A stretch of 42,571 bases of DNA from Acidobacteriota bacterium (lineage in GTDB: Bacteria > Acidobacteriota > Terriglobia > Acidiferrales > UBA7541): assembly GCA_003140295.1 (NCBI GenBank), contig PLJR01000171.1, positions 1 through 42,571 on the forward strand, written 5' to 3'. Under the pieces are notes generated by a model. The model searched no databases. It saw nothing but the letters and a program-made list of their open reading frames with translations, and was not told the DNA's origin. A program made the translations under genes and the position numbers. Positions 13,256-34,563 of the stretch are shown piece by piece (positions within the stretch are counted from its first letter, which is position 1; the number at the start of each line of letters is the position of its first letter).

Positions 13256-13294
13256 GTGAAGCTGATTCCAGGCCGGTGAAGGCAACTCTGGCTG

Positions 13295-14311: not shown

Positions 14312-14325
14312 CTACGCCCTTTCAT

Positions 14326-15084: not shown

Positions 15085-15124
15085 CTTACCGCCCTCTTCG
15101 GAGTCTCCGAATCGGCTGGCGGAG

Positions 15125-15601: not shown

Positions 15602-15809
15602 TTATTGGCGTGTCTGTGCCGCGCTCCGCGAATCTGCATCCGGAACCGGCTTACCGCCTGCGCACGGTGGTCACCCTGCGGTTCTCTTCGCGGACGGGTT
15701 TTAAGTGACAAATGACGTGCCACCCGCATCATAGAGGAGGCGTCTGGGGGTGTCAAATAGGCTCGAAATCCGTGCTATACTTCTTCCGCCGACTGAAAGC
15801 GAGGCTGTG

Positions 15810-17444
15810 ATGAAACCCGAGCGACGTGGGGCTCTCCTGGTCCTTGGAGTATTGATTCTTTCTGCTGTTCTCGGAGGGCTTTACGGCCCCTCGGTGCGCG
15901 CCACTGCTGCCGGAACCTCCGACATGCAGGACTCCATAAAAAATTTCACGCGCGTCCTCTCCATCGTTCAGCAGGATTATGCCATCCCGGTCGATACCGA
16001 CCACGCGCTCTACGATGGCGCGATTCCTGGAATGCTGCGCGTGCTTGACCCGCACTCGACTTTTTTTGATCCGCGCCAGTACGCGCTCCTTCGTGAAGAT
16101 CAGCGCGGTAAATACTACGGCGTCGGTATGACGGTCGGCCCGCAGGAAAACCACACGGTGGTGCTCGCCCCCATGCCGGGGTCCCCAGCGTCCAAGGCCG
16201 GCATTCGCCCGGGCGACATTATCCAGAATGTTGAGGGTAAGGCGACCGATGGCCTCACCACTTCTGAAGTCGCGGACCTGCTCAAGGGCCCCAAGGGCAC
16301 GGTCGTGCATATCGCCGTTTTGCGCGAGGGTTATACAGACCCGCTCGCGTTCAGTATCACGCGCGATGAAATTCCCAAACATTCGGTGGACGTTGCGTTC
16401 GTAGTCCGTCCCGGCATCGGATACGTGCGACTTTCCGGCTTCAACGAAGAAACTGATACGGAGTTGGCAGCCGCCCTTAAACAGCTCGACGTGTCCAACC
16501 TCGAGGGCTTGATCCTCGACCTCCGCGGCAATCCCGGCGGTTTACTGAACGAGGCTGTATCAATTTCCGATATGTTTCTGGACAAGAACCAGCTTATCGT
16601 TTCCCATCACGGCCGTGCATCACAGGAGCGCCGCTATTACGCGGTGCGCGGCAATCGCGGCCTGCAGGAGCCTATTGTAGTATTGGTAAACGGCGGCTCG
16701 GCATCGGCTTCAGAGATCGTTACCGGCGCGATACAGGATCATGACCGCGGTCTGGTGGTAGGCGAACAGACCTTCGGGAAGGGTTTGGTACAAACCGTTT
16801 CCCCGCTCAGTGAGAATACCGGCTTGGCGCTGACCACGGCGCGCTATTACACCCCCAGTGGGCGTCTGATACAGCGTGATTACAAAGACGTCTCGCTTTA
16901 CGACTATTTGTATAATCACAAAAATCCGCAGCCGACCGAGGTAAAGCTGACCGATGGTGGCCGGCAAGTGTTTGGCGGAGGCGGCATCACCCCGGATGTA
17001 ACGGTGAGCGAGCCCACGCCGAATCCGTTCCAGGAACTGCTGCTGCGGCGGGATGTCTTCTTTCCGTATCGGGGAGGCGTCGGCAGTTTCACCACTTCTT
17101 TCCTGGGAACGAAGCCCGAAATTACTCGCGATTTCACCGTGACCGAGGCGGTGATAGCCCAGTTCCGTCGCCATCTCGATAAAGAAAACATTAAGTACAC
17201 CGACGCGGACCTTACCGACAATCTCGATTGGGTAAAGCGCGAGATCAAGAAGGAAGTCTTTATTTCCGCCTTTGGTTTGCCCGCGGGTTACGAAGTTGAG
17301 CTGCAAAACGACCCGCAAGTGCTGCAGGCTATCGAGTCTCTGCCCCAGGCGCGGGCGTTGTATGAAAACGTGCGGAAAATCACTGCTCAGCGTGCCAGCG
17401 CACAAGCCAGTCAGCCGCTTGGCAACTTCCAGAGCCGTCCGTAA
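15810..17444 (+). CDS. carboxy-terminal processing protease (S41 family, PDZ-containing)
   Basis: GVGMTVG and PGSPASKAGIRPGDII (PDZ); NGGSASASEIVTGAIQD and TFGKGLVQT (Ser/Lys catalytic region). Start taken at ATG 15810. Confidence 0.85.
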   Translation: MKPERRGALLVLGVLILSAVLGGLYGPSVRATAAGTSDMQDSIKNFTRVLSIVQQDYAIPVDTDHALYDGAIPGMLRVLDPHSTFFDPRQYALLREDQRGKYYGVGMTVGPQENHTVVLAPMPGSPASKAGIRPGDIIQNVEGKATDGLTTSEVADLLKGPKGTVVHIAVLREGYTDPLAFSITRDEIPKHSVDVAFVVRPGIGYVRLSGFNEETDTELAAALKQLDVSNLEGLILDLRGNPGGLLNEAVSISDMFLDKNQLIVSHHGRASQERRYYAVRGNRGLQEPIVVLVNGGSASASEIVTGAIQDHDRGLVVGEQTFGKGLVQTVSPLSENTGLALTTARYYTPSGRLIQRDYKDVSLYDYLYNHKNPQPTEVKLTDGGRQVFGGGGITPDVTVSEPTPNPFQELLLRRDVFFPYRGGVGSFTTSFLGTKPEITRDFTVTEAVIAQFRRHLDKENIKYTDADLTDNLDWVKREIKKEVFISAFGLPAGYEVELQNDPQVLQAIESLPQARALYENVRKITAQRASAQASQPLGNFQSRP

Positions 17445-19614: not shown

Positions 19615-19691
19615 GGGGCCGTAGTTCAGTTGGTTAGAACGCCTGCCTGTCACGCAGGAGGTCGCGGGTTCGAGCCCCGTCGGCCCCGCCA
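19615..19691 (+). tRNA. tRNA-Asp (anticodon GTC), CCA encoded; integration target of the island
   Basis: Manual fold: acceptor GGGGCCG/CGGCCCC; anticodon loop CTGTCAC; T-loop TTCGAGC; discriminator G. Length 77 nt. Confidence 0.9.
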
Positions 19692-19697
19692 GATTTT
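19643..19697 (+). repeat. attL-type direct repeat (3' 49 nt of tRNA-Asp plus 6 nt)
   Basis: 55 bp identical to 42466..42520. Similarity continues to 19709 / 42531 with one T indel and one A/G mismatch. Confidence 0.9.
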
Positions 19698-19730: not shown

Positions 19731-20834
19731 TCAGTTCACTGTAGCGGAAATTGTAGCTACCCGCTGACCGATTTCCAGTGCTTTCAAAATCCCTTCCAGG
19801 CGGAACGTCTCCAGTTTTGCCGTGACCATCCGCTTCTGTTCTTCGGCGGGATGGACGTATCGCATCGTCATTTGGATCTTTGTGTGCCCCAGTATCGAAG
19901 CTAAAGTGGGAAGATCAGCGCCAGCGGCGACCGCTCGGGTTGCGAAGGTGTGGCGCAAATCATAGAGATGGAAATGCTCGACGATACCCGCCCGCTTCAC
20001 TGCGGCATCATGGGCCTTGCGTACACTCGCTATTGGCTTATCTCGGTCTGACGAAGGAAAAACATATGAGCCTTCGGCTTCGGCCGCTCGCTTCTTTAGT
20101 AGGGCATGAACCTCAGCCGTCATAGCCACTTTGCGTCGGGCGGCTTTCGTCTTTCCGAACGGGTTGAAAATTGTACCCCCCGCAAAATCGATATTTTCTA
20201 CCTGAATGCGGAATGCCTCTTCGGGCCGCAGGCCGGTATCCAGAATGATCTGAGAAATATCCTTGAGAGGCTGGCTCGCCTTGGCCAGGTATTTAATCTC
20301 TTCATCAAAACTCAGAACCCTCATTCGTCCGCTCGATTCAGGGAGAAACGCTATGCCCTTTGTAGGGTTTGACACGGCGAAGCCGCAGCGCTCGGCATAA
20401 TGGTAGAAGAGCTTCAGTGTGGTGAGTGCACGATTTACGGTTGCTCCCGAAATTACCCTTCCGTCCTTTGCATTTCGGCGCGGTTCGCCGATCCGCACCG
20501 CCTTGAAATCCTCCACCATTGCCGGCGTGATATCGTCAAGCCACTGCCCGCGGAAGAAGCGCAACAGGGTGTCGCAGTTCCCCGAATGGAGCTCCCACGT
20601 TTTCGGGCGGTGTTGCTGCTTCGACCACTCGAGGAATTTCTTTGCATGCTCTTCGAACTTCGGAGCGAGCTTGGCGCGCTTGAATCCCGCCCGCCGGTCA
20701 ATGAGGTCTGCCCTGCGCTTCGCTTCAACTCTCAGGGCCGCTGTCTTATTGGTGCAGCCCGACGAGCACTGAACGTGCCGTGCTTGGAATTCGAAGTGAT
20801 ACCACCAAACCTTGCCGCGTCGATAGACCGCCAT
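19731..20834 (-). CDS. tyrosine recombinase / integrase (Int1)
   Basis: N-terminal arm-type motif VYRRGKVWWYHFEF. Catalytic signature TGLRPEEA, YDLRHTFATRAV, LGHTKIQMTMRYVH. It lies 39 nt from the tRNA-Asp 3' end. Confidence 0.9.
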   Translation of the reverse strand: MAVYRRGKVWWYHFEFQARHVQCSSGCTNKTAALRVEAKRRADLIDRRAGFKRAKLAPKFEEHAKKFLEWSKQQHRPKTWELHSGNCDTLLRFFRGQWLDDITPAMVEDFKAVRIGEPRRNAKDGRVISGATVNRALTTLKLFYHYAERCGFAVSNPTKGIAFLPESSGRMRVLSFDEEIKYLAKASQPLKDISQIILDTGLRPEEAFRIQVENIDFAGGTIFNPFGKTKAARRKVAMTAEVHALLKKRAAEAEGSYVFPSSDRDKPIASVRKAHDAAVKRAGIVEHFHLYDLRHTFATRAVAAGADLPTLASILGHTKIQMTMRYVHPAEEQKRMVTAKLETFRLEGILKALEIGQRVATISATVN

Positions 20835-20836
20835 GG

Positions 20837-21112
20837 CTAGTTGTTCCTCCTAGCGTTGGATGGGTCGTTCTCGACGCGCACTATACGCTCCTGTAGCCAC
20901 GCATCCAAATCAGCCGAACGATAGCGCACGCAGTTCCTGCTGATCTTGATGAATGGAATGCCTCGGCGCTGACTTCGCCATTGCGCCAAAGTCTCGACCG
21001 AGAGACCGGTGATCTTCGCCAGGTCGTCGGCGGTCAAAAGTCGAGAATTGGCTGACGACACCTGGCCGCTCTGCTGTGCCGGAGATTTCACGAGTTTGGG
21101 CGCGGTTGCCAT
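20837..21112 (-). CDS. excisionase-family / MerR-type HTH DNA-binding protein (Xis-like)
   Basis: LTADDLAKITGLSVETLAQWRSQRRGIPFIKISRNCVRYRSADLDAWL. Sits immediately upstream of Int1. Confidence 0.75.
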   Translation of the reverse strand: MATAPKLVKSPAQQSGQVSSANSRLLTADDLAKITGLSVETLAQWRSQRRGIPFIKISRNCVRYRSADLDAWLQERIVRVENDPSNARRNN

Positions 21113-22546
21113 TTATCTCCGGGAGGGATTATTACCTTTGGACTGCGCGTAAGTCCCGGCAGCGATTCGACCGGCGATCTTAGCTACCTCCGCAACGCTC
21201 CCGGACGCCATGGCGTCGGCGAGTTCGTTCTTCATCACCGCAGACGTAGTGCGCCACGCTGGAGACCGGATTACTTCGCTTGTGGCCAGCATGATCGTCG
21301 AAGCCGCCGCTGCGTCGAGTCCGCCCATGGGTGTAAGCCCTCCAAGAGCCAGCCCAGCCGCCGCACCAGCAATGGGAGCGATGACGCGCGTAAGGCCGCC
21401 TTGCTGCCCTACGCGCCGTTGATTGGTAGCGCCGATCACATCTCCCACCTGGCTCCAGAAATGAAACTCGCCGTTAATCTTGGCGATGTCCGGGCTTTGC
21501 CGTGAGAGTTCGCGGCGAATGGCGTTGGCCGCTTCCTTCTGTGCATCGAGCGCAGTGCCTTCCGCGATGGTTTTCCCCGCGTACCCGCCGCTGCGCGCCA
21601 CGCCCTTATCGAGAATGTGACGGACTTTGTTGAGGCTTTGATAGGAGACGTTAGGCCCAAGTTGAGTGATCGTGTCCTGTAGTTTCTCGACGTTTTTTAC
21701 CGCCGCTTCATCCACCGCGACGCCGTTAACGATGAAGCCCTGCTTGTATTTTTCGAGGCTCTTAACTACTGTGGCCGTGTCTGGCTTCACCGTTGTGGGA
21801 ACTTTAGAAACCGCGTCATTGATCTTCCCGCCCAGTGTTTCCGTTTGCTGCGCCGCCTTGTTTTCAAGCCCTTGCCCGGAGAGCGCCAGTTGCCGGCGTT
21901 CCAGAAGTTCCGGCACGATCTTATCCGTCATATTCTTAGTGGTCTGTTTTGTGGGGCTCAAGAATTTCTGATACTGGTTTTCAGCCGCACGCTTCACCAC
22001 GGGGGCCGCCGCCGATACGGCTTCACCCAGCGTCGCGGCACCAGCACCGATGGCCGCTGAGGGGCCGGGTTGCTGTCCATGCAATATTGCATTTCCGCCA
22101 GCGTTCGCACTCTCTGCTGCGATACGCGCCGCTGCTGCGGGGATTTTCGTCGCAGCGGAAAACGCCTCCGCACCCTCGCGCAGCGGGCCACCGGCGAGCG
22201 TCATCTCTGCCGCTTGCTCAAGTCCGCCTCCCACCTTTTGTGCGGTGTTGGTTTCTTCCAATCGCTTCGGTGCAACTGGCGGGGCGGGAATGTATTTATC
22301 TCCGTAAGGCAGCACGGCACGCAGTCCGGTATTCACTGCTCCGGCGAGATTGTAAGGTGTCGAAGCGAGGCTCTTTCCCGCGCCAGTAGCAACGTCGCCC
22401 AGCGTTTCTCCCACCTTGGCAATGTAGGGATGGCGCTGCGAAAAGGTTTGTGGCGCGGTTTTTTCAGGAGGCTCTATTTCGTACTTCGTTTGCGCCTGAT
22501 CTGGCGGCTCTATTTCGTAGACGGTACTGCCGTCGGACTGACCCAT
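21113..22546 (-). CDS. hypothetical 477-aa Ala/Gly-rich protein with a hydrophobic C-terminal region
   Basis: Long ORF abutting the xis start. N-terminal 12-aa tandem duplication (YEIEPPDQAQTK/YEIEPPEKTAPQ). C-terminal IAPIAGAAAGLALGGLTPMGG. No family recognised. Confidence 0.6.
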   Translation of the reverse strand: MGQSDGSTVYEIEPPDQAQTKYEIEPPEKTAPQTFSQRHPYIAKVGETLGDVATGAGKSLASTPYNLAGAVNTGLRAVLPYGDKYIPAPPVAPKRLEETNTAQKVGGGLEQAAEMTLAGGPLREGAEAFSAATKIPAAAARIAAESANAGGNAILHGQQPGPSAAIGAGAATLGEAVSAAAPVVKRAAENQYQKFLSPTKQTTKNMTDKIVPELLERRQLALSGQGLENKAAQQTETLGGKINDAVSKVPTTVKPDTATVVKSLEKYKQGFIVNGVAVDEAAVKNVEKLQDTITQLGPNVSYQSLNKVRHILDKGVARSGGYAGKTIAEGTALDAQKEAANAIRRELSRQSPDIAKINGEFHFWSQVGDVIGATNQRRVGQQGGLTRVIAPIAGAAAGLALGGLTPMGGLDAAAASTIMLATSEVIRSPAWRTTSAVMKNELADAMASGSVAEVAKIAGRIAAGTYAQSKGNNPSRR

Positions 22547-22683
22547 GCACCACCACCTTTAGAAACTGCGATCACCTGTCCGTTGGCCCTGAGCTTGTGC
22601 CCCATGAGGGCGGGGAGTGAGTTCTGCGCATGATTCAGCACTGCCGGATCGGAGGATGATGAGAAGCAGAGCACTCTTACTTA

Positions 22684-25626
22684 TCATTTCCCGACCACCG
22701 TCCAGTTTTGTCCGTCACACAACACGAGCGCGTACGGGAGGGCCGGCGTGCCAGTTCCGGTCATCGTGGCGCCCCAGGTCGTCGTCGCGGGATCGGTCAC
22801 CATAGCCGTCCTACCTGCCATCGGAACTGAGCAGGTCTGCAGCGCCGCGAATAATTGCGGCATGTTGCCATTCACCACGATGGCGTTAGCCACGCCCGTA
22901 GCGGATTCGGTGGAAACGTAAGCCGTATCCCCGGCGTTCTTTTGGAGGGAAGTGAGCCCGGGGACTCCGTTGACCGTGAATGTGTTTGGGGCGGTAGCCG
23001 AAACGGCGCACTTCGCCGTGCCCCAACACATATCCGTCCAGTAAAAGGAACTGTCGTATCCGGGGCCGCCGATTAGCCCCAGCGTATCGGTCCCGGCGGT
23101 GGTGTTCGTCCGCTTGACAACTTCGCTCCGGTCGGTGGGGGCAATAGGATAGGTTGAACTAGCTTGCACGTTTACCACTGTGCCCGGAACCCCCACCACC
23201 ATTGCGGTGCCGTTCCACACCGGGTACACGTTTGCAGGCTGGCCAATGAACATTGCTGGTGTCGTGAAATCAGAAGTGAATGCCAAGGTTCCATTCGCGT
23301 TTTGCAGGGTGTAGGCGCGATTTGCCGTATTGAAGTGGGTGATGATGCCTTGGAATCCACCCACGTTTATGTTGAGCGGCCCGAGAATGTCTGACGGCGT
23401 TAGATGGCCTGCGATCTGCAAATCTCCCGGAGCGCCACCCGCGCAGCCCTGCCGTCCAATAGCGATGCATCCGCCCACACCTAGCCATCCGCCACTTTCA
23501 GTAAGCTGATCGGTCGCGGCGACTGTGGCAGGGTCATACTCCATCTGTATGGGCAGAAAATTTCCCGCACCGGCGCCGCCCGTATCGACAAACGGCGTGC
23601 CGGGAAGCGAGGAAATGAAGGCAACCGTAGTAACCGGGCTGGCAAGGTCATCTTCAATCGGGCCGCCGATGTGCCGATAAATCAAGTAAGAAGCTGCGCC
23701 CGTAACCGTGTAGGACAGCGTCATGCTCACCGAAGAAGTTGAGCCAGTAAGCGTGGTGCAGATGTCGCCGCTGGGAAAACCGTCTTTGCCTAAACTGTCC
23801 CGAACAACCACCATGTAGCAAACCAAGCCGGCCGGGAGCGTTCCTCCCGATGACGAAGGCGTGAGAAATAGAGACGGAGGGCCGATGGGAATCTTCATGC
23901 CGCCAGCAAAGGCTGCGCTTGGAGTGTTGGCGAACGTGGTCAAACCGCCGTGCTTGTTGATGTTGAAAAAGCTGTTGCTGTATCCGTAAATTCCGAGCGG
24001 GCAGTAGGACGCGATGCAGCCGATTTCGATTGCGCCATCAAAAAGATGTGGACCTTCTTGATTCGTGCCGGGTGGCTGGCGATAGATGGGCCCGACCGGG
24101 CCTGGATTTACGATCAAGCTCGAATAGAAGGTGTGCACGCCGGGGGTGCCGGTGAGTTGCACGATGGGCGTGGGCAGGCCGCCCGCATTGTCAGCGGTAA
24201 TCGGCTCGTACAAATCCCATGCGCCGTAGCCGCCGCCGGTGATGTCCAAGCAAAACATGCAATCCGATCCACCTTCATAGAGTTGCAGTTGCGAGTGAAT
24301 AAAGGTCGAATCTCCTCCGTGAGCGCAAAGATGGCTATCGAAGTTGACGCCCTTTTGGTCGAGGAACGTGCGGTCCCACAAAATGATGCGCGGCGGGTCG
24401 CAGCCCGGGCTGATATCGGTGGTGATGAAATTCATACTGGGTGCGCCGGTGGGCCATGGAGAATTAGCCAAAAAGCCGCCGCGCTCGAAGTAGTAGCCGA
24501 AGCCGTTCACGCCCTTGAACGGAATCCCAGCGTCGTTATTCACCTGCGACCAGATGTCCCTAAAGATCGTGTTGCCGCTCTTGTTCACGGCAAGCTGGGT
24601 GCCAGGGCCGTAGAAGGAAAGGCCAGAGACTAAACCGTCGAAACCCGAAGCATTTTCGAGGCTCAACACCGTACTGAGAGAAGTGTTAATTGGGCAGTTC
24701 GTGGTGTTCAGGAACGGAATGAAGCCGTTAGAATGCTGAAAGGGTTCGTGGCATTGTAGGGCGTACCCGCCGGGCACGTGCATGGTAGACGTGGGGTTGA
24801 ATCTGCCGCCAAACGACAGGGCAATGCCTTCGGTGGGTGAAGTGAACGTAATCGCGCCCGTGCAATTATCGGGGATGAATGGCGTGCCGCCCGTGATAAG
24901 TAGGCCATTTATCGCGTTGTTCATCTGCACAGTGTTGATGGTCACGCCATCACACGGCTGGCTTCCGTATGCCGCATTCGTAATGGCTGTGATCGGGTTG
25001 GGTCCGAGATTTGGGTAGCCGGTTCCACTCCCCCCGCCTCCTGATCCGCACCCGCCCGTGGTCACGCAGGGGTAAGTCACCTGCCGGAATGTCGTGGCGA
25101 CGTTCGGGCCGTAGATTTGCAGCCAGTACGGTCCCGGGGCGATACCGAAGGCGTAATTACCCAAGCCATCGGTCAGCGTGGGATTGGAAATTGGCGTTCC
25201 CAGCGTGGTGTCGGAGTAAAGCGCAGCGAGCGATGCGCACGGGCCGCTCGTGCCGCGCTGCACCGCAGTTCCGACCGACGCGCCCGCAGCATTCGCATGA
25301 GTCAGCGGGTAGGTGATCGTGCTGGTGGAAACCGCCAGGATGGTGAAGTTGCCGTTGAAATAAGTGTCGGCGCCAGTAAAACCCGCAACCGTCAGCGTGC
25401 CGCCCACGATGAAGCCCGCCGTCACGGGATTGGACGACATGACGAGTGTGGCAAGATTGTTTGTCACCGCAGCACTGGCAATGGTAGCCGGCGAGCATAC
25501 GGCCACGCTCGCGCCAGCCAGCGGCAGGCCCGCACCACTCTGCGCGGTGTTGTTTTCCTGATAGCCCTGGGCACGCGCGACGGTCGCGCATAGCAGGATG
25601 CCGAGGATGAGCAGAAAGCGTTTCAT
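22684..25626 (-). CDS. 980-aa secreted protein; N-terminal Ig/CarboxypepD_reg-like region, Gly/Ser linker, beta-helix (pectate-lyase-3/tailspike-like) candidate
   Basis: Signal peptide MKRFLLILGILLCATVARAQG. GLGNYAFGIAPGPYWLQIYGP, linker GGCGSGGGGSGTG, and AYGSQPCDGVTINTVQMNNAINGL resemble the start of tailspike or glycosidase beta-helices. The C-terminus LVLCDGQNWTVVGK is tail-fibre-like. Confidence 0.65.
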   Translation of the reverse strand: MKRFLLILGILLCATVARAQGYQENNTAQSGAGLPLAGASVAVCSPATIASAAVTNNLATLVMSSNPVTAGFIVGGTLTVAGFTGADTYFNGNFTILAVSTSTITYPLTHANAAGASVGTAVQRGTSGPCASLAALYSDTTLGTPISNPTLTDGLGNYAFGIAPGPYWLQIYGPNVATTFRQVTYPCVTTGGCGSGGGGSGTGYPNLGPNPITAITNAAYGSQPCDGVTINTVQMNNAINGLLITGGTPFIPDNCTGAITFTSPTEGIALSFGGRFNPTSTMHVPGGYALQCHEPFQHSNGFIPFLNTTNCPINTSLSTVLSLENASGFDGLVSGLSFYGPGTQLAVNKSGNTIFRDIWSQVNNDAGIPFKGVNGFGYYFERGGFLANSPWPTGAPSMNFITTDISPGCDPPRIILWDRTFLDQKGVNFDSHLCAHGGDSTFIHSQLQLYEGGSDCMFCLDITGGGYGAWDLYEPITADNAGGLPTPIVQLTGTPGVHTFYSSLIVNPGPVGPIYRQPPGTNQEGPHLFDGAIEIGCIASYCPLGIYGYSNSFFNINKHGGLTTFANTPSAAFAGGMKIPIGPPSLFLTPSSSGGTLPAGLVCYMVVVRDSLGKDGFPSGDICTTLTGSTSSVSMTLSYTVTGAASYLIYRHIGGPIEDDLASPVTTVAFISSLPGTPFVDTGGAGAGNFLPIQMEYDPATVAATDQLTESGGWLGVGGCIAIGRQGCAGGAPGDLQIAGHLTPSDILGPLNINVGGFQGIITHFNTANRAYTLQNANGTLAFTSDFTTPAMFIGQPANVYPVWNGTAMVVGVPGTVVNVQASSTYPIAPTDRSEVVKRTNTTAGTDTLGLIGGPGYDSSFYWTDMCWGTAKCAVSATAPNTFTVNGVPGLTSLQKNAGDTAYVSTESATGVANAIVVNGNMPQLFAALQTCSVPMAGRTAMVTDPATTTWGATMTGTGTPALPYALVLCDGQNWTVVGK

Positions 25627-25642
25627 CGTTAGAAGGCTGAGT

Positions 25643-25664
25643 ACGTCACTAAAAACACGTCACT
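25643..25664 (-). promoter_or_regulatory. direct repeat ACGTCACT x2 (14-bp period) just upstream of the 980-aa gene
   Basis: ACGTCACT at 25643-25650 and at 25657-25664, 17-38 nt upstream of the ATG at 25626 on the minus strand. Confidence 0.3.
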
Positions 25665-25775
25665 GTCGGTCCGGGCGTGGGTTGCCGCCGCCTGCGGATG
25701 GTTCGTGTTCAGACCGGCCCGTTTTTCTCCCGGTCTTTTTCCGCTCTGCGGATACCAAACGTTTACGCGCATTAG

Positions 25776-26324
25776 TTAGCTTCTTAGAACCAGCATGTTT
25801 ACAGGACCGTACGAGTTCCCCCCGGCACTATTGCCGGCCGTGGTGGGCGGCACGGCTCCGAGGTAGTACACGGCGAAGATGGGCGTGCCAATCGTGGCAT
25901 CTCCGGTGATTGCGGCCTGATCGGCCCACTGGTCGCCGCCCGTCACAACTTCCCGCATGATCGCGTATTGCAGGTTGGCGGGGAGGGTTACCGGGCTGAT
26001 CGCGGCCCACCGATAAGCGTTTATCGGCCCTTTCGACATGTCGATTACTGCCGTCGCCAGAATGGTGAGCGCTCCGGCGTTGTCTGCTGCGAGGTAAATA
26101 TGCGTTGCCGGATTCGCGTTCCCGGCCACGCGCCACATGCCTAGTGCCGTGACCGTGTAATTCACTGATGCCGGCGTCCCAAAACTGAATCCCACGGCGC
26201 CGCTCGCGTCGCTTCTCAGCGAGCCAATGGATTGCGCGGTCACCAGCAGCGAGCCTGGGGGCGTAGGGAAGGCGTTCACCGGTATCGATGTTCTCGACCG
26301 CTCGCGTGTTCGTAAGAGTCCCAT
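25776..26324 (-). CDS. hypothetical 182-aa protein, possibly DUF4082-like beta-sandwich
   Basis: Strong SD (GGAGGAG, 7 nt before ATG 26324). GFSFGTPASVNYTVTALGMWRVAGNANPATHIYLA...AYRWAAISPVTLPANLQYAI resembles the DUF4082 pattern as I remember it; this was not tested. Confidence 0.55.
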   Translation of the reverse strand: MGLLRTRERSRTSIPVNAFPTPPGSLLVTAQSIGSLRSDASGAVGFSFGTPASVNYTVTALGMWRVAGNANPATHIYLAADNAGALTILATAVIDMSKGPINAYRWAAISPVTLPANLQYAIMREVVTGGDQWADQAAITGDATIGTPIFAVYYLGAVPPTTAGNSAGGNSYGPVNMLVLRS

Positions 26325-26379
26325 CTTCTAACTCCTCCCATTCAGAATCGTTGAGATTTTTGCCGCGCATGTTTTTCGC

Positions 26380-27738
26380 TCAGTCTGTTGCCGCGGTCCT
26401 TTCGCTTGCATTTTCCGAACTATGCCGCGCGATCGCTGGCGTCTCGAATCTCAGAGTTTCGATATTGAATGTGGCTTCTACGCGGCCGACACGTCCGTCT
26501 CGATGCTTCAGGACAATGACGCGCGCCTCCGTTTCATCGCCCTTCAGATCCCGCACAAAGGGCCTGTCCACGAAAACAACGCAGCTCGCATGCTTGGCTT
26601 TCGCACCGGACCCGTAAAGGCCCGCGAGCGTCGGGCGCCTGGCATCTTCCCCGGTGAGCGGCTTGCGGAGTTGCGAAACCAGGATGGCCACACAACTGAG
26701 CTCCATGGCCAGCGACTTCAACCCACGCACAATGTTTCGCTGCTGCTCAAATTCATCTTTCCCGGGCGCCGTAACCAACTCGTCGTAATCGACGATGAGC
26801 AGCTCCAGACCCTCGCGCCCCTTCAGCCGACGAGCGACACGGCGGATCATGGCGAGCGCGAGTTCACGATCAAGGATTTGGCAGCGCGTGCACTGGTGGC
26901 TCGCCGCAGCCACCAAAGCGTGCCAGTCCTGTTCTGTCAATCGATGAGGAAGGCGCATCTTCGAAGGTTTTACGTGTGCGTTCGCCGCCAGCTCCCGGGC
27001 GAGAAGTTGCGGAGCGAGCATTTCTCCCGAGCAAAAAAGCGAATGGTAGCCGTCAGTGCAGGCGCGTCGGCGCGTTTGTTGGACCAGCAACGTTTTCCCG
27101 TGGCCGGTGCCGCCTGTGAAAACCACAAGCTCGCCGGCACGAAACCCGCCAGTCAGTTCGTCGAGTCCTGACAGATCAGTGTGGATGCGCAGCGAGTCGG
27201 ACTTTTCCAGATTACTAAGAAGTGCAGCGCTGGCGTCCCGATAACTTATGGTGTGGTCTTCGTCCGCGGCGCTTTCCCGGGCGATCGCTGAGAAGTCCTC
27301 GATCGCGCAATCCAGTAGCGTGTTTGCGTCTTCACTGGCTTCAAATGCCCGCTGCTTAATTGCGTTCGCCGCGCGGATCACGGCTCGCAACGCTGCCCGG
27401 TCTTTGAGAGCGCGAATGTGATGCTCGAGCTTGAGTCCTGCAGGTATTCCATTGCAGAGACTCGCCAGGTATCCGATACCGCCAGCGATGGTCATCTTCT
27501 CCGTGCGGCTGAGCTCCGTTTGAACCGACAACAGATCCACCGCACGCCCCTTGGAGTGAAGCTGCTGAATTGCACCGGCGATGGCCTCATGCTCCGACAT
27601 GAAATAATCTTGAGGGCCCATTTGCTCAAGCAGCGCCGCGCGCGTTTTGTGTCCCTCTAAAATCGCTCCGAGGATGACCTTCTCGACCTCGGGAAGGTGC
27701 GGCATGGTCGGCTCCGTTGTCTCGATCGTCTTGTTCAT
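26380..27738 (-). CDS. DnaB-like replicative DNA helicase (mobile-element type)
   Basis: DnaB N-terminal-like PEVEKVILGAIL; Walker A FTGGTGHGKT; Walker B-like LLIVDYDEL. 452 aa, with a 4-bp overlap with the upstream gene. Confidence 0.85.
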   Translation of the reverse strand: MNKTIETTEPTMPHLPEVEKVILGAILEGHKTRAALLEQMGPQDYFMSEHEAIAGAIQQLHSKGRAVDLLSVQTELSRTEKMTIAGGIGYLASLCNGIPAGLKLEHHIRALKDRAALRAVIRAANAIKQRAFEASEDANTLLDCAIEDFSAIARESAADEDHTISYRDASAALLSNLEKSDSLRIHTDLSGLDELTGGFRAGELVVFTGGTGHGKTLLVQQTRRRACTDGYHSLFCSGEMLAPQLLARELAANAHVKPSKMRLPHRLTEQDWHALVAAASHQCTRCQILDRELALAMIRRVARRLKGREGLELLIVDYDELVTAPGKDEFEQQRNIVRGLKSLAMELSCVAILVSQLRKPLTGEDARRPTLAGLYGSGAKAKHASCVVFVDRPFVRDLKGDETEARVIVLKHRDGRVGRVEATFNIETLRFETPAIARHSSENASERTAATD

Positions 27739-28484
27739 GCATTCACCGTCGCCAGGGGAATTTCTTCTTTGAAGCCCGAGTCGGCCCCTACTTTTTCGGA
27801 GTGACGAAGCGAATTAAGCGCGCGGAAGAGGGGCGCCAAACCTCGTTTCCAGGTCTCGTCGCCGGCGTTCGAATCTCGCCAGCCATCCAGGCATCGGCCG
27901 ATCACCGCGGAAGGCGGCTCTCCGTTTCGAGAGGCCCAGCAACTCTCTAACAGCGCTCGAAAACTGGGATGCCCGCAAGGCTCTATTTCCAGGAAGGTCC
28001 ATACGGCGGCTGCAGCTGCTTTACTTCTACTGCCTTCTGCTGCTTTCTTAGGAGTGCGAATCGCCTGTGTTTTAGAGGCTATCCGAAGAGTGCTGATATC
28101 AGTGCTGGTATCAGTGCTGGGCTCGCCTGTGATTCCAGCAGATTTGCCGGTATCAATGGCGATACCAGCAGAGTTCGAGCGTTTTTGGTACTTCCGTATG
28201 CGAATTAGCGTGTATTGATGCTGGTTTCCGCGCCTTAGAACTTTTACGAAGCGCTGGCAAAGTTCGGCCATTGCACGTTTGACCTTAATTTTCGGCCAAC
28301 GCATTTCCTTTGCGATTTCCGCGTACGTAGTCTCTACAGTTCCACGTTTCTGGCCGGTCCAGTACGCTACTAAGTGCAACCATAGGTATAATTTCACCCC
28401 ATCACTCGACATCCGCCCGAGATGCTCACGAAGACCCCTTCGGATCGGAGCAAAACCGCGATCCTTGTAGCGAATGTTGCTCAC
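27735..28484 (-). CDS. replication-initiator-like winged-helix protein (phage O / DnaD-like architecture)
   Basis: N-terminal wHTH-like GVKLYLWLHLVAYWTGQKRGTVETTYAEIAKEMRWPKIKVKRAMAELCQRFV; low-complexity Ser/Thr/Asp linker; translationally coupled to the helicase. The assignment is an inference from position and architecture. Confidence 0.55.
   Translation of the reverse strand: MSNIRYKDRGFAPIRRGLREHLGRMSSDGVKLYLWLHLVAYWTGQKRGTVETTYAEIAKEMRWPKIKVKRAMAELCQRFVKVLRRGNQHQYTLIRIRKYQKRSNSAGIAIDTGKSAGITGEPSTDTSTDISTLRIASKTQAIRTPKKAAEGSRSKAAAAAVWTFLEIEPCGHPSFRALLESCWASRNGEPPSAVIGRCLDGWRDSNAGDETWKRGLAPLFRALNSLRHSEKVGADSGFKEEIPLATVNA
28089..28172. repeat. iteron-like repeats inside the initiator-like gene
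   Basis: Three tandem 12-mers: AGTGCTGATATC, AGTGCTGGTATC and AGTGCTGGGCTC (28089-28124). GATTCCAGCAGA at 28131 and GATACCAGCAGA at 28161. Inverted GGTATC-N6-GATACC at 28149-28166. Confidence 0.6.
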
Positions 28485-28735
28485 GGCACGCTCTCAATCG
28501 AGTTTGCGAGCTTGACGGCTATACGCGAAAGATTGCGCAAATTCGCCGGGCTGGATGGAAGGTCACGTTCAGCACGAAGCAACAAAAGACGGCATTGTCC
28601 GAGGAAAATCTCGACGTCAATAATCTCGTCGCCCGTGGCAAAATCCCTGTCGCGCCTTGTCCCGGGACATAAGGAATTGGTTGTTGAGCACGTCTCGGCG
28701 CCTTCGAGTGACCCGGCCTGGGCGCGTTTGGGCAT
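28481..28735 (-). CDS. hypothetical 84-aa protein
   Basis: Fits the overlapping-gene chain between the wHTH gene and the initiator-like gene. No motif recognised. Confidence 0.4.
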   Translation of the reverse strand: MPKRAQAGSLEGAETCSTTNSLCPGTRRDRDFATGDEIIDVEIFLGQCRLLLLRAERDLPSSPANLRNLSRIAVKLANSIESVP

Positions 28736-29049
28736 CAGCGCACCCCCGCAAAGAGCGGCATCGCTTCCGCATGAAGTTCGCGCGTGCGCTGTTCGTAAGT
28801 TGGGATTTCACGGGGGGCTTGCGGTTCCGTGTGAAGCACGAAGCGAAAGACACTGTCGCCCTCCCGCCGCGTCTCGACTGCAAAACCCTGCTTGCGTAGC
28901 TCCCAGATGCGGGCGCCGTAGCGAAAGCAGACCGTATTCAGTTCGAGATTTGTGACGCCGGCGCGGCCGCGCTCTCGGAGCAATGCTAGGATGCGGTCTC
29001 GCTGAGCGGGCGATTTGTCGGTGGGTCCACGTGACGTTTCGGATTTCAC
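28735..29049 (-). CDS. winged helix-turn-helix protein (HTH_39-like)
   Basis: QRDRILALLRERGRAGVTNLELNTVCFRYGARIWELRKQGFAVETRREGDSVFRFVL. This is the pattern of small phage/plasmid wHTH proteins. Confidence 0.7.
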   Translation of the reverse strand: MKSETSRGPTDKSPAQRDRILALLRERGRAGVTNLELNTVCFRYGARIWELRKQGFAVETRREGDSVFRFVLHTEPQAPREIPTYEQRTRELHAEAMPLFAGVR

Positions 29050-29231
29050 GGGCGGGCCTCCAGGGTTCCGGCCTGCACCGGCTCATCGGTGAACGGCATC
29101 AAGTCGAGAATTTCCTCACGCTGCAGCAAAACGCCGCGACGAAGTTTGCGAAAAAGCAGGTTGAAATGGGCTTGCAGGAAGAGGCGTTTCTGTTCTGTCG
29201 TTGCTTTCACACTATCAGTATTCCAGGCGGT

Positions 29232-29304
29232 GCAACGCCATAACCCCAGGTTGTGGCGTTGCGGCGTGGCGCGGTCGCCGCCACAACCGGGGGTTGTGGC
29301 GGCG
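29232..29304. promoter_or_regulatory. two related palindromes sharing the core GCCA(C/T)AACC-N3-GGTTGTGGC, centres 43 bp apart
   Basis: 29232-29262: GCAACGCCATAACC-cca-GGTTGTGGCGTTGC, with one T:G position. 29276-29304: CGCCGCCACAACC-ggg-GGTTGTGGCGGCG, perfect. Both lie in the intergenic region between the 535-aa gene and the wHTH gene. Confidence 0.6.
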
Positions 29305-29343
29305 AATCGACCGATCTACTGAGGGGGAATGGAACTAACGGTG

Positions 29344-30951
29344 CTAGGCCACTCCCTTTCGACTTTTGGTGATCACTCGTTCGATGGTGCGGATTGAGCC
29401 GCCGTGCTCTTCGATGAGCCAGCCCTTAACGCGTTCGGCAAGGGGCATCATATGGCGTCTGCCGGCTCTGAACTCGTCGCACACCTTGACGATTTCCCGG
29501 TGAAGCTTCGGCCACAACAGGAATGCCTTAAGATTCCCTCGACCGTGCTGCTCACACATCCATTCTCCCACTGACGCGATTGTCGGCTTCGCATCCACCT
29601 TCGCAGTCCATTCGAGTAGCAAGCGGCAGTCCGACATTAATTCCTCGTACTCACGCGGAATCGTGATCTTTTCACTTGGTAGATAGACTTCAGGGTGGCC
29701 ACCTTCTCGACTTGCACCGAGTCGTTTCCATTCGGCCCTCAATAACGGCTCGGCATTTTGAACCAAGGTGCTGGCTAGTTTGTAGGAAAGTAGATAATTC
29801 GTTTGCCTACGGTTCTCACGTAACGCCAATTCGCCCCTTGCGTCCTTCACTTTCACAATTCTCAGCGGACCGCCGTTCTGCACGAGAAACTCCCTAATCC
29901 GATGGATGCCCACCCTCAGACGCCCAGCCAATTCTGTCAGCGCAGCATCTCTCGACCGAAACAGGCTCTTCCCATGTTGGAGCCCGGCAGCCCACCTTCG
30001 GAGATCTGCAGCCCTAAAGAGAACACTTCCTCCGCGCTTGAAATGCGGAATTGGCGAATTTGCTCTGTCGCGAACACGGTCATACACCCACATTACCGGA
30101 ACGCCGAGGAGCTGCGCCGCTGTCTTGGGAACAAGTTCCTCCTGCTGGCCGTCCGCCAACATCGCATCTGCTGCCCAAGCCTTGCCGCCCCAGACAATCT
30201 TCATGTCCTCCCAGTGAGCGCGCAGGCGCTCTTCCGTGACAGCTTGACCGCGATCAATCAGGCACGGTTTTCCAGGTGGCAGGCCGACCGTCCGCCAGCG
30301 AGCGACCACGGCAGAGGCACTGATGGAGATGCCGTACTTCTTCGTCACTGAGACAGCAACGTCCCTTGCCTCTTCGCCGCGAAGGCGCGGCTCAACAACC
30401 GCCCAGTTCGGGATGCTTCGGCCCACCCGGTCCTTTTTTCGGAAATTGGGTCGTGGTTTCCCCTTAAGCGCCCTTGAAATATTCTGTTTTGCCTGTTGGC
30501 TGACACCCCATTGCTTCCTCGCGTTAACTCCTTTTTGTGGCTCCGGTCCCTGCTTCTGGCCGAACCTGGTCTGGAGGGGTGGCCGCCAGCGCGAGGCATT
30601 TTTCTCCTTCGCCATAGCGTTGCAAAAATTTAGAGACGCAAGCGGAGTGTTCTTATTCAGATTGTATTGGCGTCGGAAATTCTCTCCAGTTACACCGGGG
30701 TGCTCGGTGCGGAAGTGATCAGGCAATCTCTTGAACGCTCGCGGAGGGTTGCAAAGGAAGCAGGCCACGTGATCTGGGTATTTCTGACGTGCAGCTGTCC
30801 AATCCTTTTCCCAATCGGCGATCTCCTGTGCTAGGAGCACTTGGCCCGTTTTTCTGTGCGTGGTGTAGTAACTGTGAAGATAGGCCCGCTTGTCTGGCGT
30901 GGTGGCTCGCGGCCTTCCCAATTCGTTCTGTGTCTGAACTTCCATCAACAA
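29344..30951 (-). CDS. 535-aa multidomain DNA-binding protein: N-terminal MucR/Ros-type zinc finger, basic NUMOD3-like stretch, excisionase-type HTH
   Basis: [35 protein letters not shown] parallels Ros [50 protein letters not shown] is the basic stretch. [44 protein letters not shown] is the HTH. Confidence 0.7.
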   Translation of the reverse strand: [535 protein letters not shown]

Positions 30952-31101
30952 TTCCTTCCCGCCCGGTTGGCGCCGGGGCTTTCTTGATCGCCCGATTGGT
31001 TTCTTCCGCGGCTATTCTCCGAGCTTGGCCGACCTCGGGTTTGAAAGAGGAACTTCACTGCGTGCGCCCCGTCCGCCGGGGGCCTTTCGACCCCGGGGCG
31101 A

Positions 31102-31512
31102 TCACCTCCCAACAAAGCCACGGTCCGCCTCTCTCGCATGCCTTAACGTTGGCTCGATGTCTTTCCCGCTGAGTTTGTCGCGGGCGATGTAAACCACAGA
31201 GTTGGAGCGGATGAAGGTATTCGCGGGATCAGAGTAAAGATTCGTCATCACGTCCCGAATGGCATCTGCGCTGTAGAACGTGAACGTCTGGAGTCGAAGA
31301 GCCTCCCGGCGCTCCGGCGGGAGATCGTTCGAGAGCACCGAATACGTATTGCTTTGGCCATCGACGAATCCCTGGAGATAGATGGAACGGGACACGTTCG
31401 ACCACGCGTTCCACTGGCGACCGTAATTAAAGAGTTCATCCTGCGTCCAAGTCTTAATAGCAACGAGAAGAAACAATGTCACGACTGCGAACGATAGCCA
31501 GCGTCTAAGCAT
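31102..31512 (-). CDS. hypothetical 136-aa protein with N-terminal membrane anchor or signal
   Basis: MLRRWLSFAVVTLFLLVAIKTW, then a soluble domain. It is the first gene downstream of the leftward promoter. Confidence 0.55.
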   Translation of the reverse strand: MLRRWLSFAVVTLFLLVAIKTWTQDELFNYGRQWNAWSNVSRSIYLQGFVDGQSNTYSVLSNDLPPERREALRLQTFTFYSADAIRDVMTNLYSDPANTFIRSNSVVYIARDKLSGKDIEPTLRHAREADRGFVGR

Positions 31513-31572
31513 CAGCTTCTTCCTTTCTTGTGTCTCGGTACTGCCTAACGCCCATCCTCGCCAATTCCTGTG

Positions 31573-31616
31573 ACTCTAACGAATGTGTTGACACGTGTCA
31601 AGACCTGTAGTACAAG
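31573..31616. promoter_or_regulatory. divergent promoter pair sharing a 14-bp perfect palindrome TTGACACGTGTCAA (31588-31601)
   Basis: Minus strand: TTGACA (31601-31596), 17 nt, TAGAGT (31578-31573), facing the 136-aa gene. Plus strand: TTGACA (31588-31593), 17 nt, TACAAG (weaker), facing the HTH gene. Confidence 0.55.
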
Positions 31617-31626
31617 TAAGAAGGCC

Positions 31627-31839
31627 GTGAGCGCAAAAACTTATACGACGCAGAAAGCCGCGGACGCGGTAGGGATCACGCGTGCGACGTTGCAGGCGTG
31701 GATCAAGAATGGGAAGTTCAAAGCGCCCACGACGAAGGTGCGGAACGGACGCGCCGTGAGGGTATGGACTGAATCAGACCTTGCAAAACTCAAAGCAGTG
31801 AAGAAGGAAATCTATCAGGAGAAGCGGCCCCGCAGATAA
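31627..31839 (+). CDS. MerR/excisionase-type HTH protein (regulator or RDF)
   Basis: YTTQKAADAVGITRATLQAWIKNGKFKAPTTKVRNGRAVRVWTESDLAKL. The GTG at 31627 is preferred because the ORF-track start at 31570 lies upstream of the predicted promoter. Confidence 0.65.
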   Translation: MSAKTYTTQKAADAVGITRATLQAWIKNGKFKAPTTKVRNGRAVRVWTESDLAKLKAVKKEIYQEKRPRR

Positions 31840-31906
31840 AGACGGGACGCGCCGGTGTTAGAAGCACCGACACGCCCCTAACCACAGCGTTCAATGGAGG
31901 AACGAC

Positions 31907-32272
31907 ATGGCTACACAAAGAGTACCCGCACTTCAATTCCCGTCGCAACATTCCACGCAAGCAATCCCGCAACCGGAAATCATCTCCCAAAACGAAGTCG
32001 CCATTTTGTTGTCGATGCGTGGCCGGCTTCATCAACTCGCCGATCAAGTCGAGGCGACCGAGAAATCGCTGCGCGCGCGCCTGGAAATGGGCGCACCCGT
32101 GGAGGAAGGCGATCACGTCGCCCAACTCAATGAGCATTTCCGCGCGAGTGTCGCATGGAAGGAAAAGGCCATCGATCTGGCCGAGCGCTTGGGCCTGAAC
32201 GGCCCGGCCTGGGCGCAGAACGTCCTGACGCACACGACCAAAAACCGCATCGTTTCACTGTTTGTCGAATAA
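31907..32272 (+). CDS. hypothetical 121-aa protein
   Basis: GGAGGA 5 nt upstream of the ATG; co-directional with its neighbours. No motif recognised. Confidence 0.5.
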   Translation: MATQRVPALQFPSQHSTQAIPQPEIISQNEVAILLSMRGRLHQLADQVEATEKSLRARLEMGAPVEEGDHVAQLNEHFRASVAWKEKAIDLAERLGLNGPAWAQNVLTHTTKNRIVSLFVE

Positions 32273-32379
32273 CTCCGAAACGCGCGGGTGGGCCGATCAG
32301 GTTTGCCCGCGCGTCCGCCCGTCATTTACGCCCAGGCCTGCGGGTGCCGATGAGGCTGGCCGGGCTTTGAGGTGTCGCC

Positions 32380-33462
32380 GTGCCACGAAAGAAAGCTCGT
32401 CTGAAGTTGGAACCAGAAGTCCCGATAACCGACCAGCACTTTGAGTTTCCGGATTCCGATAAAGAATGGATGGCCCTGCAGCACCACATTATCGAACTCA
32501 CTGGCAAGCCGATCGAGGATCTCCAGTGGCGCGAACTTAATGGCCTTCGCCAAGCCCTGACAGAGTCGGAGCAGCTAGCTTTGCGCGGGTACCAACGACG
32601 CAAGCGACTCGAAACGAGCAAAGCCTTCGACGGAATTCAAAGTTTCACGGACTGGAAAGAAAAGCATTGCGATCTGACGCTGGAGGACATCGTCGACTTC
32701 TACGACACGGCAAGAGCGGTAACAATTCGCGTAATCGGGGCGGAAAGCATTCCGGACTACCTGCCCGTCCTACAGAAGATTGAGCAGGAACTCTTTGCCG
32801 AAATGAATAAGACCCCGGGTCTCATTGCTGAAAAGGACGATTCTCAGGAAGACTGGCCCATTGGTACCAAGCTCATACGAAATTTGTGCCGACTTCTTCC
32901 GACGGAAGAAAACAACGAGAAGCTTTGGGATTGGTACAACAAATTGAAAGCCAAGCGAGAGGAATTGCTACAAAAAGCCAAGGACGCGCAATTGACGGCA
33001 CCGCCCACGCCTGCGGCTCCAGGGAACGGGCGCAAACCCGACATGTGGTTTGAAGAACTCCATAAGCGCAGTCGGGACTTTGAGCGCGTGTGCAGGATCG
33101 GCATTGAGCGCGGTGTAATTGCCCAACGCGGACCATATCTCTATTTCAACGGAAAATTGCTCGGAAATGGTCTAGACGGCGCAGCATGGAAAATCGTGCG
33201 CGAGAATTATGAATTAGAGGCGGAGGTACGTCTTGCTGTAAGGGCGGCTGAGGCAAGCCCGGCACTAACAATTGCCCCCGCCACGGTCGAGGAAGCGCTT
33301 GCGTCCGGTTGGCAATATGCGCGAACGCGAGGGAAGGCCCTGACATTTGATCGCCGAAGCCTTCGCGGGTTTGTTGAACTGACCAAGGAAGGCACACCGG
33401 GAATCCTCGAAATCCCGTTCGTTGCCACGGTTAAGCACAATGCACCTCGTCGGCGGTCGTGA
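32380..33462 (+). CDS. hypothetical 360-aa protein with a RecA-C-terminal-domain-like tail
   Basis: IGIERGVIAQRGPYLYFNGKLLGNGLDGAAWKIVRENYELEAEVRLAVR aligns by eye with E. coli RecA [48 protein letters not shown]. No Walker motifs are visible. Confidence 0.55.
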   Translation: MPRKKARLKLEPEVPITDQHFEFPDSDKEWMALQHHIIELTGKPIEDLQWRELNGLRQALTESEQLALRGYQRRKRLETSKAFDGIQSFTDWKEKHCDLTLEDIVDFYDTARAVTIRVIGAESIPDYLPVLQKIEQELFAEMNKTPGLIAEKDDSQEDWPIGTKLIRNLCRLLPTEENNEKLWDWYNKLKAKREELLQKAKDAQLTAPPTPAAPGNGRKPDMWFEELHKRSRDFERVCRIGIERGVIAQRGPYLYFNGKLLGNGLDGAAWKIVRENYELEAEVRLAVRAAEASPALTIAPATVEEALASGWQYARTRGKALTFDRRSLRGFVELTKEGTPGILEIPFVATVKHNAPRRRS

Positions 33463-33463
33463 A

Positions 33464-34483: not shown

Positions 34484-34563
34484 TTCGCACTGCGCCGGCG
34501 TCTGCCGCATTTCGCGCCTCGCCGCGGCACCGATGAGGAACGCGAGCGCTTGGGGAGGATTAG

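Follow-up and report, generated by a model that had tools for sequence, protein, structure and literature searches.

What kind of element combines an integrase, an excisionase, and replication genes with three large uncharacterized proteins in one leftward gene block? The question is raised by contig PLJR01000171.1 of an Acidobacteriota bacterium (assembly GCA_003140295.1), analyzed over 42,571 nucleotides (nt); this whole stretch is called the window, and coordinates are window positions unless another contig is named. A first-pass annotation had described nine codirectional, tightly packed genes starting at position 20837 as a compact module. All nine minus-strand open reading frames (ORFs) are present at the lengths it gave and are real, but the integrase gene (19731 to 20834) lies outside that start. 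Moreover, the block is not a whole element: it forms the left arm, about one third, of a 22.8-kb island, the extra recombinases and swappable cassette of which had been missed. We tentatively favor the view that this island is a capsid-less, integrative, self-replicating element with phage-derived accessory genes, which would behave as a satellite-like hitchhiker of podophages that have an SU10-type adaptor and share its host.

The island is enclosed by a perfect 55-nt direct repeat (19643 to 19697 and 42466 to 42520). The left copy, attL, consists of the 3' half of a tRNA-Asp (GTC) gene plus 6 nt, and this gene (19615 to 19691, plus strand; found by ARAGORN and by Rfam RF00005 with 72.7 bits) is the integration target. 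A 25-nt core of the repeat occurs twice in the window, while no occurrence is expected. The right copy, attR, is followed by host genes in two longer contigs (L049 and L050), so that the island has host genes on both sides; past attR, longer contigs from other samples encode a Zn-peptidase, CarboxypepD_reg proteins, a metallo-beta-lactamase-fold protein, and a TonB-dependent receptor. Since no att copy lies inside the island and attR is followed by host genes, an arrangement of two elements in tandem was rejected. Copies of the island were found in at least five assemblies; they are 98.8 to 99.8% identical, and all of them occupy the same tRNA-Asp gene. Distant relatives were found in metagenome-assembled genomes (MAGs) of Bryobacterales, and the CarboxypepD_reg domain is common in Acidobacteria; both points make an acidobacterial host probable. 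In another strain, tRNA-Asp is occupied by a related integrase (contig L048, 259 to 445; 81% nucleotide identity). Furthermore, about 40 nt past attR (in 42521 to 42571) resemble both the sequence that follows attL and the 3' end of an integrase gene. The site resembles a hotspot of repeated insertion and seems to retain a short remnant of an earlier element. Apart from three tRNAs, a scan for noncoding RNAs with Rfam detected nothing.

The genes next to attL are those of an integrating and replicating element. From the repeat inward, all on the minus strand, they encode the tyrosine integrase Int (367 amino acids [aa]; 19731 to 20834; PF00589, E = 1.2e-27; phrog_1, E = 4.8e-62); Xis, an excisionase-type HTH_17 protein (91 aa; 20837 to 21112; PF12728, E = 1.8e-10; the excisionase family phrog_66, E = 2.4e-11); the three large proteins p477, p980, and p182, named for their lengths in amino acids; a DnaB-type replicative helicase (452 aa; 26380 to 27738; PF03796, E = 7.6e-44; PF00772, E = 1.4e-17; phrog_19, E = 9.9e-64); a 249-aa protein (27735 to 28484); an 84-aa protein (28481 to 28735) without a Pfam match or detectable relatives; and a winged-helix regulator (104 aa; 28735 to 29049; PF14090 HTH_39, E = 1.5e-7; phrog_21071, E = 1.9e-17). 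The 249-aa protein gave faint PHROG matches to a DnaD-like loader and a replication initiator (E = 0.004 to 0.025), and a phmmer search with it returned nothing useful. These matches, together with a repeat cluster inside its gene, suggest that it is a putative replication initiator or helicase loader. The genes are closely coupled. Those of the regulator and the 84-aa protein overlap by 1 nt, and the next two junctions (84 aa/249 aa and 249 aa/DnaB) overlap by 4 nt each; p477, xis, and int are contiguous, with 0 nt and 2 nt between them. Gaps of 55, 149, and 137 nt flank the p182 and p980 genes. All nine genes are intact, with coupled junctions, in the window and in the island copy of contig L008.

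The repeat cluster (28091 to 28228) is iteron-like and comprises six copies of TGCTGGTATC; it is a candidate origin. Counted with at most one mismatch and in both orientations, the motif occurs nine times in the window compared to 1.65 expected, none of 100 shuffled sequences reached nine, and six of the nine copies fall within 138 nt. Lambdoid phages are known to have their origin within the initiator gene. Upstream of the regulator gene, four GGTTGTGGCG-like 10-mers form two inverted pairs (29236 to 29301) and represent a candidate operator; the count of this motif is by itself not significant. Promoter and terminator scans gave counts at chance level.

The earlier statement that capsid, packaging, and transfer genes are not recognizable in the block can be extended to the entire island, within the sensitivity of Pfam, PHROGs, NCBIfam, and PADLOC searches: no capsid, portal, terminase, tail, relaxase, or secretion gene was detected, and no fragment or pseudogene of a capsid, portal, or terminase gene is left. 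Among the island ORFs, none matched a relaxase, coupling-protein, or type IV secretion family of Pfam, as looked for in integrative and conjugative elements (ICEs) and mobilizable elements. Adaptor (PF24175), nozzle, portal, major capsid protein, and large terminase, the genes looked for in SU10-type tailed phages, are all missing from the island, whereas they are present around the homologs of its genes in contigs L001 to L003, L005, L006, and L046. The island is neither a phage with an SU10-type adaptor nor an ICE nor a mobilizable element.

Two of the three large proteins connect the island to tailed phages. p477 (21113 to 22546, minus strand) has 21 homologs at 40 to 57% identity, and the distribution of this family is phage specific. 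In four phage contigs (L005, L006, L046, and L047), the p477 homolog closes a cluster with the order SU10-type adaptor, 850- to 1013-aa protein (nozzle), four to five small genes, 460- to 607-aa protein, and p477-like protein, and its start overlaps the stop of the preceding gene. In L047, the gene before it matches phrog_2534, described as "released from the phage upon host infection" (E = 1.2e-14). In a Bryobacterales MAG (contig L016), a p477 homolog is located three genes upstream of the large terminase gene of a prophage at a tRNA. In phage SU10, the ejection proteins gp20 to gp24 are encoded after the tail genes (PMC9509320), and the end of the adaptor-nozzle-small-gene cluster, where the p477 homologs are found, corresponds to this place. 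The connection to SU10 comes from gene neighborhood in uncultured acidobacterial phages and not from any demonstrated sequence similarity of p477 or p980 to SU10 proteins.

The AlphaFold2 model of p477 is entirely helical (mean pLDDT, 70; core, approximately 90), and the protein contains a hydrophobic segment (aa 388 to 406). Foldseek comparison to BFVD revealed weak matches to phage proteins with a transglycosylase domain and to proteins annotated as "injection" or "DNA transfer" (best E = 2e-4; TM score, approximately 0.3). No match at E ≤ 0.001 was obtained with Foldseek against PDB, where only generic helical bundles appeared, a PDB profile search gave only chance-level matches, and there was no Pfam match. 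The island copy retains 42 of the 42 invariant columns of its family, and its dN/dS ratio is 0.12. With moderate confidence, we regard p477 as a probable ejection- or internal-virion-type protein. A conserved pair of approximately 500-aa genes and a nearby HNH gene in contig L004 had given rise to the idea that p477 is a portal protein and its upstream partner a terminase. It was rejected because the model is all-helical, the partners have no terminase match, and L016 has a separate large terminase. The partners upstream of the p477 homologs show no detectable relation to one another or to p980. The L004 locus itself (345 to 16412; GCA_016853205.1, JACXTT010004578.1) encodes Int, an HTH_17 protein, an HNH endonuclease, a 541-aa protein and a p477 homolog from coupled genes, unknown proteins, and a DUF3987 primase. 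Neither borders nor a gene recognizable as encoding a capsid protein or terminase were found for this locus, which may represent a further element with an ejection-type gene and without a capsid.

p980 (22684 to 25626, minus strand) is a predicted exported, modular protein. It starts with a signal peptide (aa 1 to 19, ARA|QG; 25570 to 25626), followed by an N-terminal domain up to approximately aa 190, a core (aa 225 to 746), and a unique C-terminal domain of about 230 aa (aa 747 to 980), which matches nothing. Ten relatives were found among 5.8 billion proteins. The closest ones, with 44 to 68% identity over aa 225 to 746 plus aa 114 to 178, are encoded in three prophage-like clusters of podophage type (L001 to L003) with genes for a terminase, a protein of about 900 aa, an SU10-type adaptor (PF24175), another protein of about 900 aa, and a soluble lytic transglycosylase; in these clusters, the p980 homolog is located in the interval from the presumed capsid gene to the adaptor gene. 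Relatives sharing just the N-terminal 190 aa or so are encoded in two further phage contigs, and a profile scan of IMG/VR revealed 26 viral contigs that encode proteins of 470 to 1400 aa with the p980 N terminus and varied C termini, one of which showed a weak K1-lyase_C match. The p980 family is phage specific, since its relatives were found in phage or prophage DNA alone. For p980 itself, there was a faint match to phrog_529 (E = 0.009) and none in Pfam, NCBIfam, or PDB profiles. Its AlphaFold2 model, based on a 10-sequence alignment, was unusable (mean pLDDT, 36). The dN/dS ratio compared to the prophage copies is about 0.19. Over the core, p980 and its homologs in L001 to L003 are 52 to 68% identical. 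These three clusters (each at approximately 1 to 22000 of its contig) end beside the same host DsbC/thioredoxin/DSBA gene in three genomes. This suggests either that the three clusters share an integration site or that a phage-like element, possibly domesticated, has been resident there for a long time.

The signal peptide of p980, noticed already in the first-pass annotation, was supported when the sequence was read directly and was conserved in about 22 homologs, the N termini of which consist of a basic stretch, a hydrophobic stretch, AxA or AxG, and then QG. Since this textbook-like signal peptide is conserved across the family, the family is probably exported via Sec. The N-terminal domain is of the CarboxypepD_reg type, which is common in exported acidobacterial proteins. 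Large phage-encoded proteins with a conserved Sec-type signal peptide and a CarboxypepD_reg-like domain (L018 to L045) are unusual in tailed-phage genomes. With its conserved N-terminal module, shared core, and private C-terminal domain, p980 resembles a receptor-binding protein. Its modularity and phage restriction also recall tail fibers and tailspikes, yet the conserved signal peptide argues against assembly in the cytoplasm. Sec export of a whole family of large phage proteins would mean a role outside the virion.

The third protein, p182 (25776 to 26324, minus strand), is a stand-alone DUF4082-type (choice-of-anchor-like) domain. A word-indexed search returned only p182 itself, and an exhaustive phmmer search gave 864 matches at E ≤ 0.001. 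p182 can be aligned from end to end with an approximately 155-aa domain, of which giant proteins contain up to 17 repeats. The gathering score of PF13313 (DUF4082) was reached by four of seven homologs tested (P0037, P0079, P0082, and P0102; 35 to 47% identity) but not by p182 itself, which gave no match to PF13313 at E ≤ 0.1 and only a weak one to NF041539 (choice-of-anchor-R; E = 7e-4, below the NCBIfam threshold). The label "DUF4082-like" proposed earlier is therefore right for the wider domain group. Domains of the DUF4082 and choice-of-anchor types are typically found in giant surface proteins; unlike those proteins, p182 is a single domain without a signal peptide and is encoded in a mobile island. 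A hidden Markov model of the domain found no copy in the phage loci retrieved up to that point. A match to an ordinary chromosomal enzyme family, which would have spoken against a mobile-element role, was found for none of p182, p980, and p477.

A trace of contact between the island and a phage was found inside the p980 gene. Over 240 nt (24068 to 24307), this gene is 92 to 98% identical to its counterpart in the L003-type prophage, with an exact run of 101 nt, while the rest of the shared core is 58 to 78% identical at the DNA level. Another contig (L010) equals the island up to this patch and then equals the prophage into a gene for a 139-aa protein, the SU10-type adaptor gene, and the next gene. 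Either genuine recombination or a chimeric assembly through the repeat could explain this contig. In both cases, the island and the L003-type prophage occur together in one sample and exchanged DNA recently. Outside the p980 gene, the island and this candidate helper have no DNA in common, including cos- or pac-like DNA.

Taken together, the data are consistent with the following scheme. A swappable regulatory cassette (29.2 to 31.8 kb) and the winged-helix protein would control one leftward transcript, from which the 249-aa initiator and DnaB are made. As the repeat cluster and the gene coupling suggest, replication would start at the TGCTGGTATC repeats inside the initiator gene. Xis and Int, encoded at the end of the transcript, would recombine the 55-bp att sites and excise a circle. 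The accessory genes for p182, p980, and p477 lie between the replication and excision genes; p980 probably binds or modifies a cell surface structure, p182 is of the DUF4082 domain type, and p477 is a helical member of a family encoded at the end of podophage virion clusters where ejection proteins are expected. Since the island has no capsid, portal, or terminase gene, its spread between cells would need the particles of a helper phage, into which p477 is possibly loaded. We infer that the island excises, replicates, and rides in such particles.

The earlier proposal of a satellite-like island that borrows a helper capsid would be the best fit with regard to att repeats, integrase and excisionase, replication genes, the lack of capsid and packaging genes, phage-family genes, and the recent recombination patch in one of the latter. 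An integrase and an excisionase are present together with att repeats, DnaB is coupled to a putative initiator with an iteron-like cluster, and genes for a complete virion are missing. However, a packaging-hijack gene, an excised circle, and an encapsidated copy were not found. No function recognizable as redirecting helper packaging was detected, and the island is therefore not filed as a member of the PICI (phage-inducible chromosomal island) or P4 type.

Several further observations weigh against the satellite-like reading. The searches for a small terminase, a capsid size redirector, or a cos/pac mimic, which could miss divergent versions, yielded as sole hint a match of p169 to phrog_57 (E = 0.03), which probably reflects its helix-turn-helix (HTH) domain. 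The putative ejection role of p477 is deduced from gene position and weak fold matches. A conserved Sec signal peptide is difficult to reconcile with p980 being built into virions in the cytoplasm. In contigs L007 and L009, from two independent assemblies, a 37-nt deletion (25094 to 25130) frameshifts p980 into ORFs of 170 and 798 aa, so that the p980 gene can be lost. Signal peptide and deletion variant together weaken p980 as a virion part. Neither an attP junction nor an empty site nor a viral-fraction copy of the island was found, and a search of metagenome contigs for the exact 55-nt att sequence gave one related occupied site but no empty site or excised circle. In IMG/VR, there was no relative of the island initiator and no copy of the island. 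With all copies at least 98.8% identical and at one site, nothing indicates that this architecture belongs to an old, diversified lineage. Finally, three extra recombinases are encoded in the right arm, and the island may be a composite.

Could the island instead be a defective prophage? According to this explanation, a temperate podophage lost terminase, portal, capsid, adaptor, and nozzle, kept int, xis, the replication module, and two late genes, and can no longer transfer by itself, while its phage genes decay slowly. The p980 and p477 families are otherwise seen in phage genomes alone, and the L016 prophage, which has a large terminase and a p477-like gene, shows a similar layout of Int, Xis, and replication module. 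The p980 frameshift in two samples would fit decay, the additional recombinases of the right arm suggest that other elements have accreted, and the integrase-like 40 nt or so after attR indicate that the site held and lost elements before. However, the att repeats are perfect over 55 nt, the nine genes are intact and coupled in the window and in L008, and no capsid, portal, or terminase fragment or pseudogene is left. The p980 and p477 genes are kept under purifying selection (dN/dS, 0.12 to 0.19). Moreover, p980-like and p477-like genes were never neighbors in the phage loci examined, and the order DnaB-p182-p980-p477-xis-int therefore requires several rearrangements, not one deletion; the island is not a simple deletion remnant. 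Perfect att sites, intact coupled genes, and a gene order unseen in phages weaken this explanation, which we consider unlikely. The island shares with cryptic or defective prophages a phage-type integrase, an excisionase, a replication module, isolated late-region genes, and the lack of capsid genes, but it differs from them by its perfect att repeats, the lack of pseudogene debris, its intact coupled genes, and an order not found in the intact phages examined.

A second alternative starts from the exported proteins. The island could be a nonviral integrative replicon, comparable to an integrated plasmid, with three middle genes that act for the lysogen: p980 and p182 would bind or degrade surface polysaccharide or mask a phage receptor, p477 would be a co-opted, helical, membrane-active partner, and the outcome would be adhesion, depolymerase activity, or superinfection exclusion. 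The Sec-type signal peptide with its AxA|QG cleavage motif in about 22 family members, the CarboxypepD_reg-type domain, the weak K1-lyase_C match in one member, and the DUF4082/choice-of-anchor type of p182 all point in this direction, as does the unique C-terminal domain of p980, which suggests ligand specificity. p136, p160a, and p190 would be further small exported or membrane proteins. In this respect, the earlier suggestion of a secreted adhesin or depolymerase for the host is plausible for p980, given the family-wide signal peptide, and for the domain type of p182, but p182 has no signal peptide. Furthermore, the p477 family belongs to the ejection part of phage virion clusters and has no evident host-benefit role, the three genes are inside a replication-to-excision transcript and not in a separately regulated slot, and, with no transfer means encoded, spread would still need a helper. 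A pure cargo function is made less likely by where p477 is encoded in phages and by the coupling of its gene to xis and int, and we doubt that this explanation is the right one.

Very improbable, finally, is a new small temperate virus that makes its own particles in the manner of plasmaviruses or pleolipoviruses, with p980 as spike, p477 as internal or membrane protein, and p182 as coat. In its favor, p980 has a signal peptide, as is also found on the spikes of viruses that contain a membrane, a hydrophobic segment is present in p477, vesicle-like virions need no known capsid gene, and all three proteins are without a Pfam family. Against it, p980 lacks a C-terminal membrane anchor, no packaging NTPase was recognized, IMG/VR holds no copy, and the real element is 22.8 kb long with much nonviral baggage. 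Furthermore, members of the p980 and p477 families are encoded by ordinary tailed phages that possess terminase, SU10-type adaptor, and lytic transglycosylase genes, none of which is present in the island; the virion or spike proteins of an undescribed small virus considered in the first-pass annotation are therefore not supported.

Returning to the satellite-like reading, we compared the island to known satellites. Like PICIs, P4, and PICI-like elements (PLEs), it encodes a tyrosine integrase, with att sites in direct repeat at a tRNA, and an excisionase, has a putative initiator and a helicase of its own together with a candidate origin inside the element, and lacks genes for capsid, portal, tail, and terminase. 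Further shared features are accessory genes, gene sequence in common with a co-occurring phage, and a regulatory region that is mosaic and swappable. Unlike them, it has no recognizable small terminase, capsid size redirector, or Sid/Psu- or Cpm-type gene, it carries genes related to those of an ejection-type and of an exported phage protein, its host is probably an acidobacterium, and its dependence on a helper is putative. Most PICI and P4 elements are smaller than 22.8 kb. To our knowledge, ejection-type and exported phage-family homologs are not hallmark genes of any described satellite family. The classification suggested here draws on gene neighborhood and architecture. The more far-reaching proposal that the island founds an undescribed acidobacterial satellite family, which brings its own ejection-type p477 and an exported, receptor-binding-protein-like p980 with p182 and rides podophages with an SU10-type adaptor, is possible but rather doubtful.

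The regulatory cassette (29202 to 31843) is replaced by an unrelated 1.6-kb sequence in otherwise approximately 99% identical islands. In the window, it encodes p535 (29344 to 30951, minus strand; HTH_17 and ROS/MucR), p136 (31102 to 31512, minus strand; signal-peptide-like N terminus), and p89 (31570 to 31839, plus strand; HTH_17/MerR-like); the leftward block may also take in p535 and p136. The alternative cassette (L007, 5479 to 7123) encodes a 262-aa protein, a 79-aa Cro/C1-like HTH protein, and a 74-aa protein. The left breakpoint lies just beside a cluster of inverted repeats (29215 to 29322), and the replacement looks like an exchange of an immunity or regulatory region, as in phages and satellites.

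The right arm (31907 to 42465) encodes p121, p360, and recombinases, followed by small HTH, zinc-ribbon, exported, and membrane proteins; no known defense system was detected in it with PADLOC. The three recombinases, all on the plus strand, are two tyrosine recombinases (353 aa, 33422 to 34483; 380 aa, 34884 to 36026) and a serine resolvase (216 aa; 36023 to 36673). They belong to a coupled run (32380 to 36673) of p360, tyrosine recombinase, p107, tyrosine recombinase, and serine resolvase, with 4-nt overlaps between the last three. This run may be a nested mobile unit or a multirecombinase module; no flanking inverted repeats were found around it. Farther to the right, 37200 to 38600 is poor in ORFs and has a GC content of 0.49 to 0.52, compared to approximately 0.58 elsewhere. 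A 22-nt tandem repeat (1.9 copies, 90% match) was detected at 38383 to 38424, and the low-GC stretch matched no Rfam family. The p190 gene (38588 to 39160) belongs to a 66-member cluster found on many short contigs. A signal-peptide-like N terminus in p160a (36771 to 37253) and membrane segments in p190 suggest that the island, with p136 included, codes for several small proteins that are exported or located in the membrane.

Acidobacteria rank among the most abundant bacteria of soils, and their mobile elements are little known. If the island is a decaying prophage, the finding is an ordinary one. If it is a working satellite, it would extend phage parasitism to Acidobacteria, with a gene set (an ejection-type and an exported phage-family protein and no recognizable hijack gene) that departs from the PICI, P4, and PLE patterns. 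Furthermore, the large modular proteins with Sec signals encoded in at least 20 viral contigs provide a testable lead on how phages or lysogens may act at the surface of their hosts.

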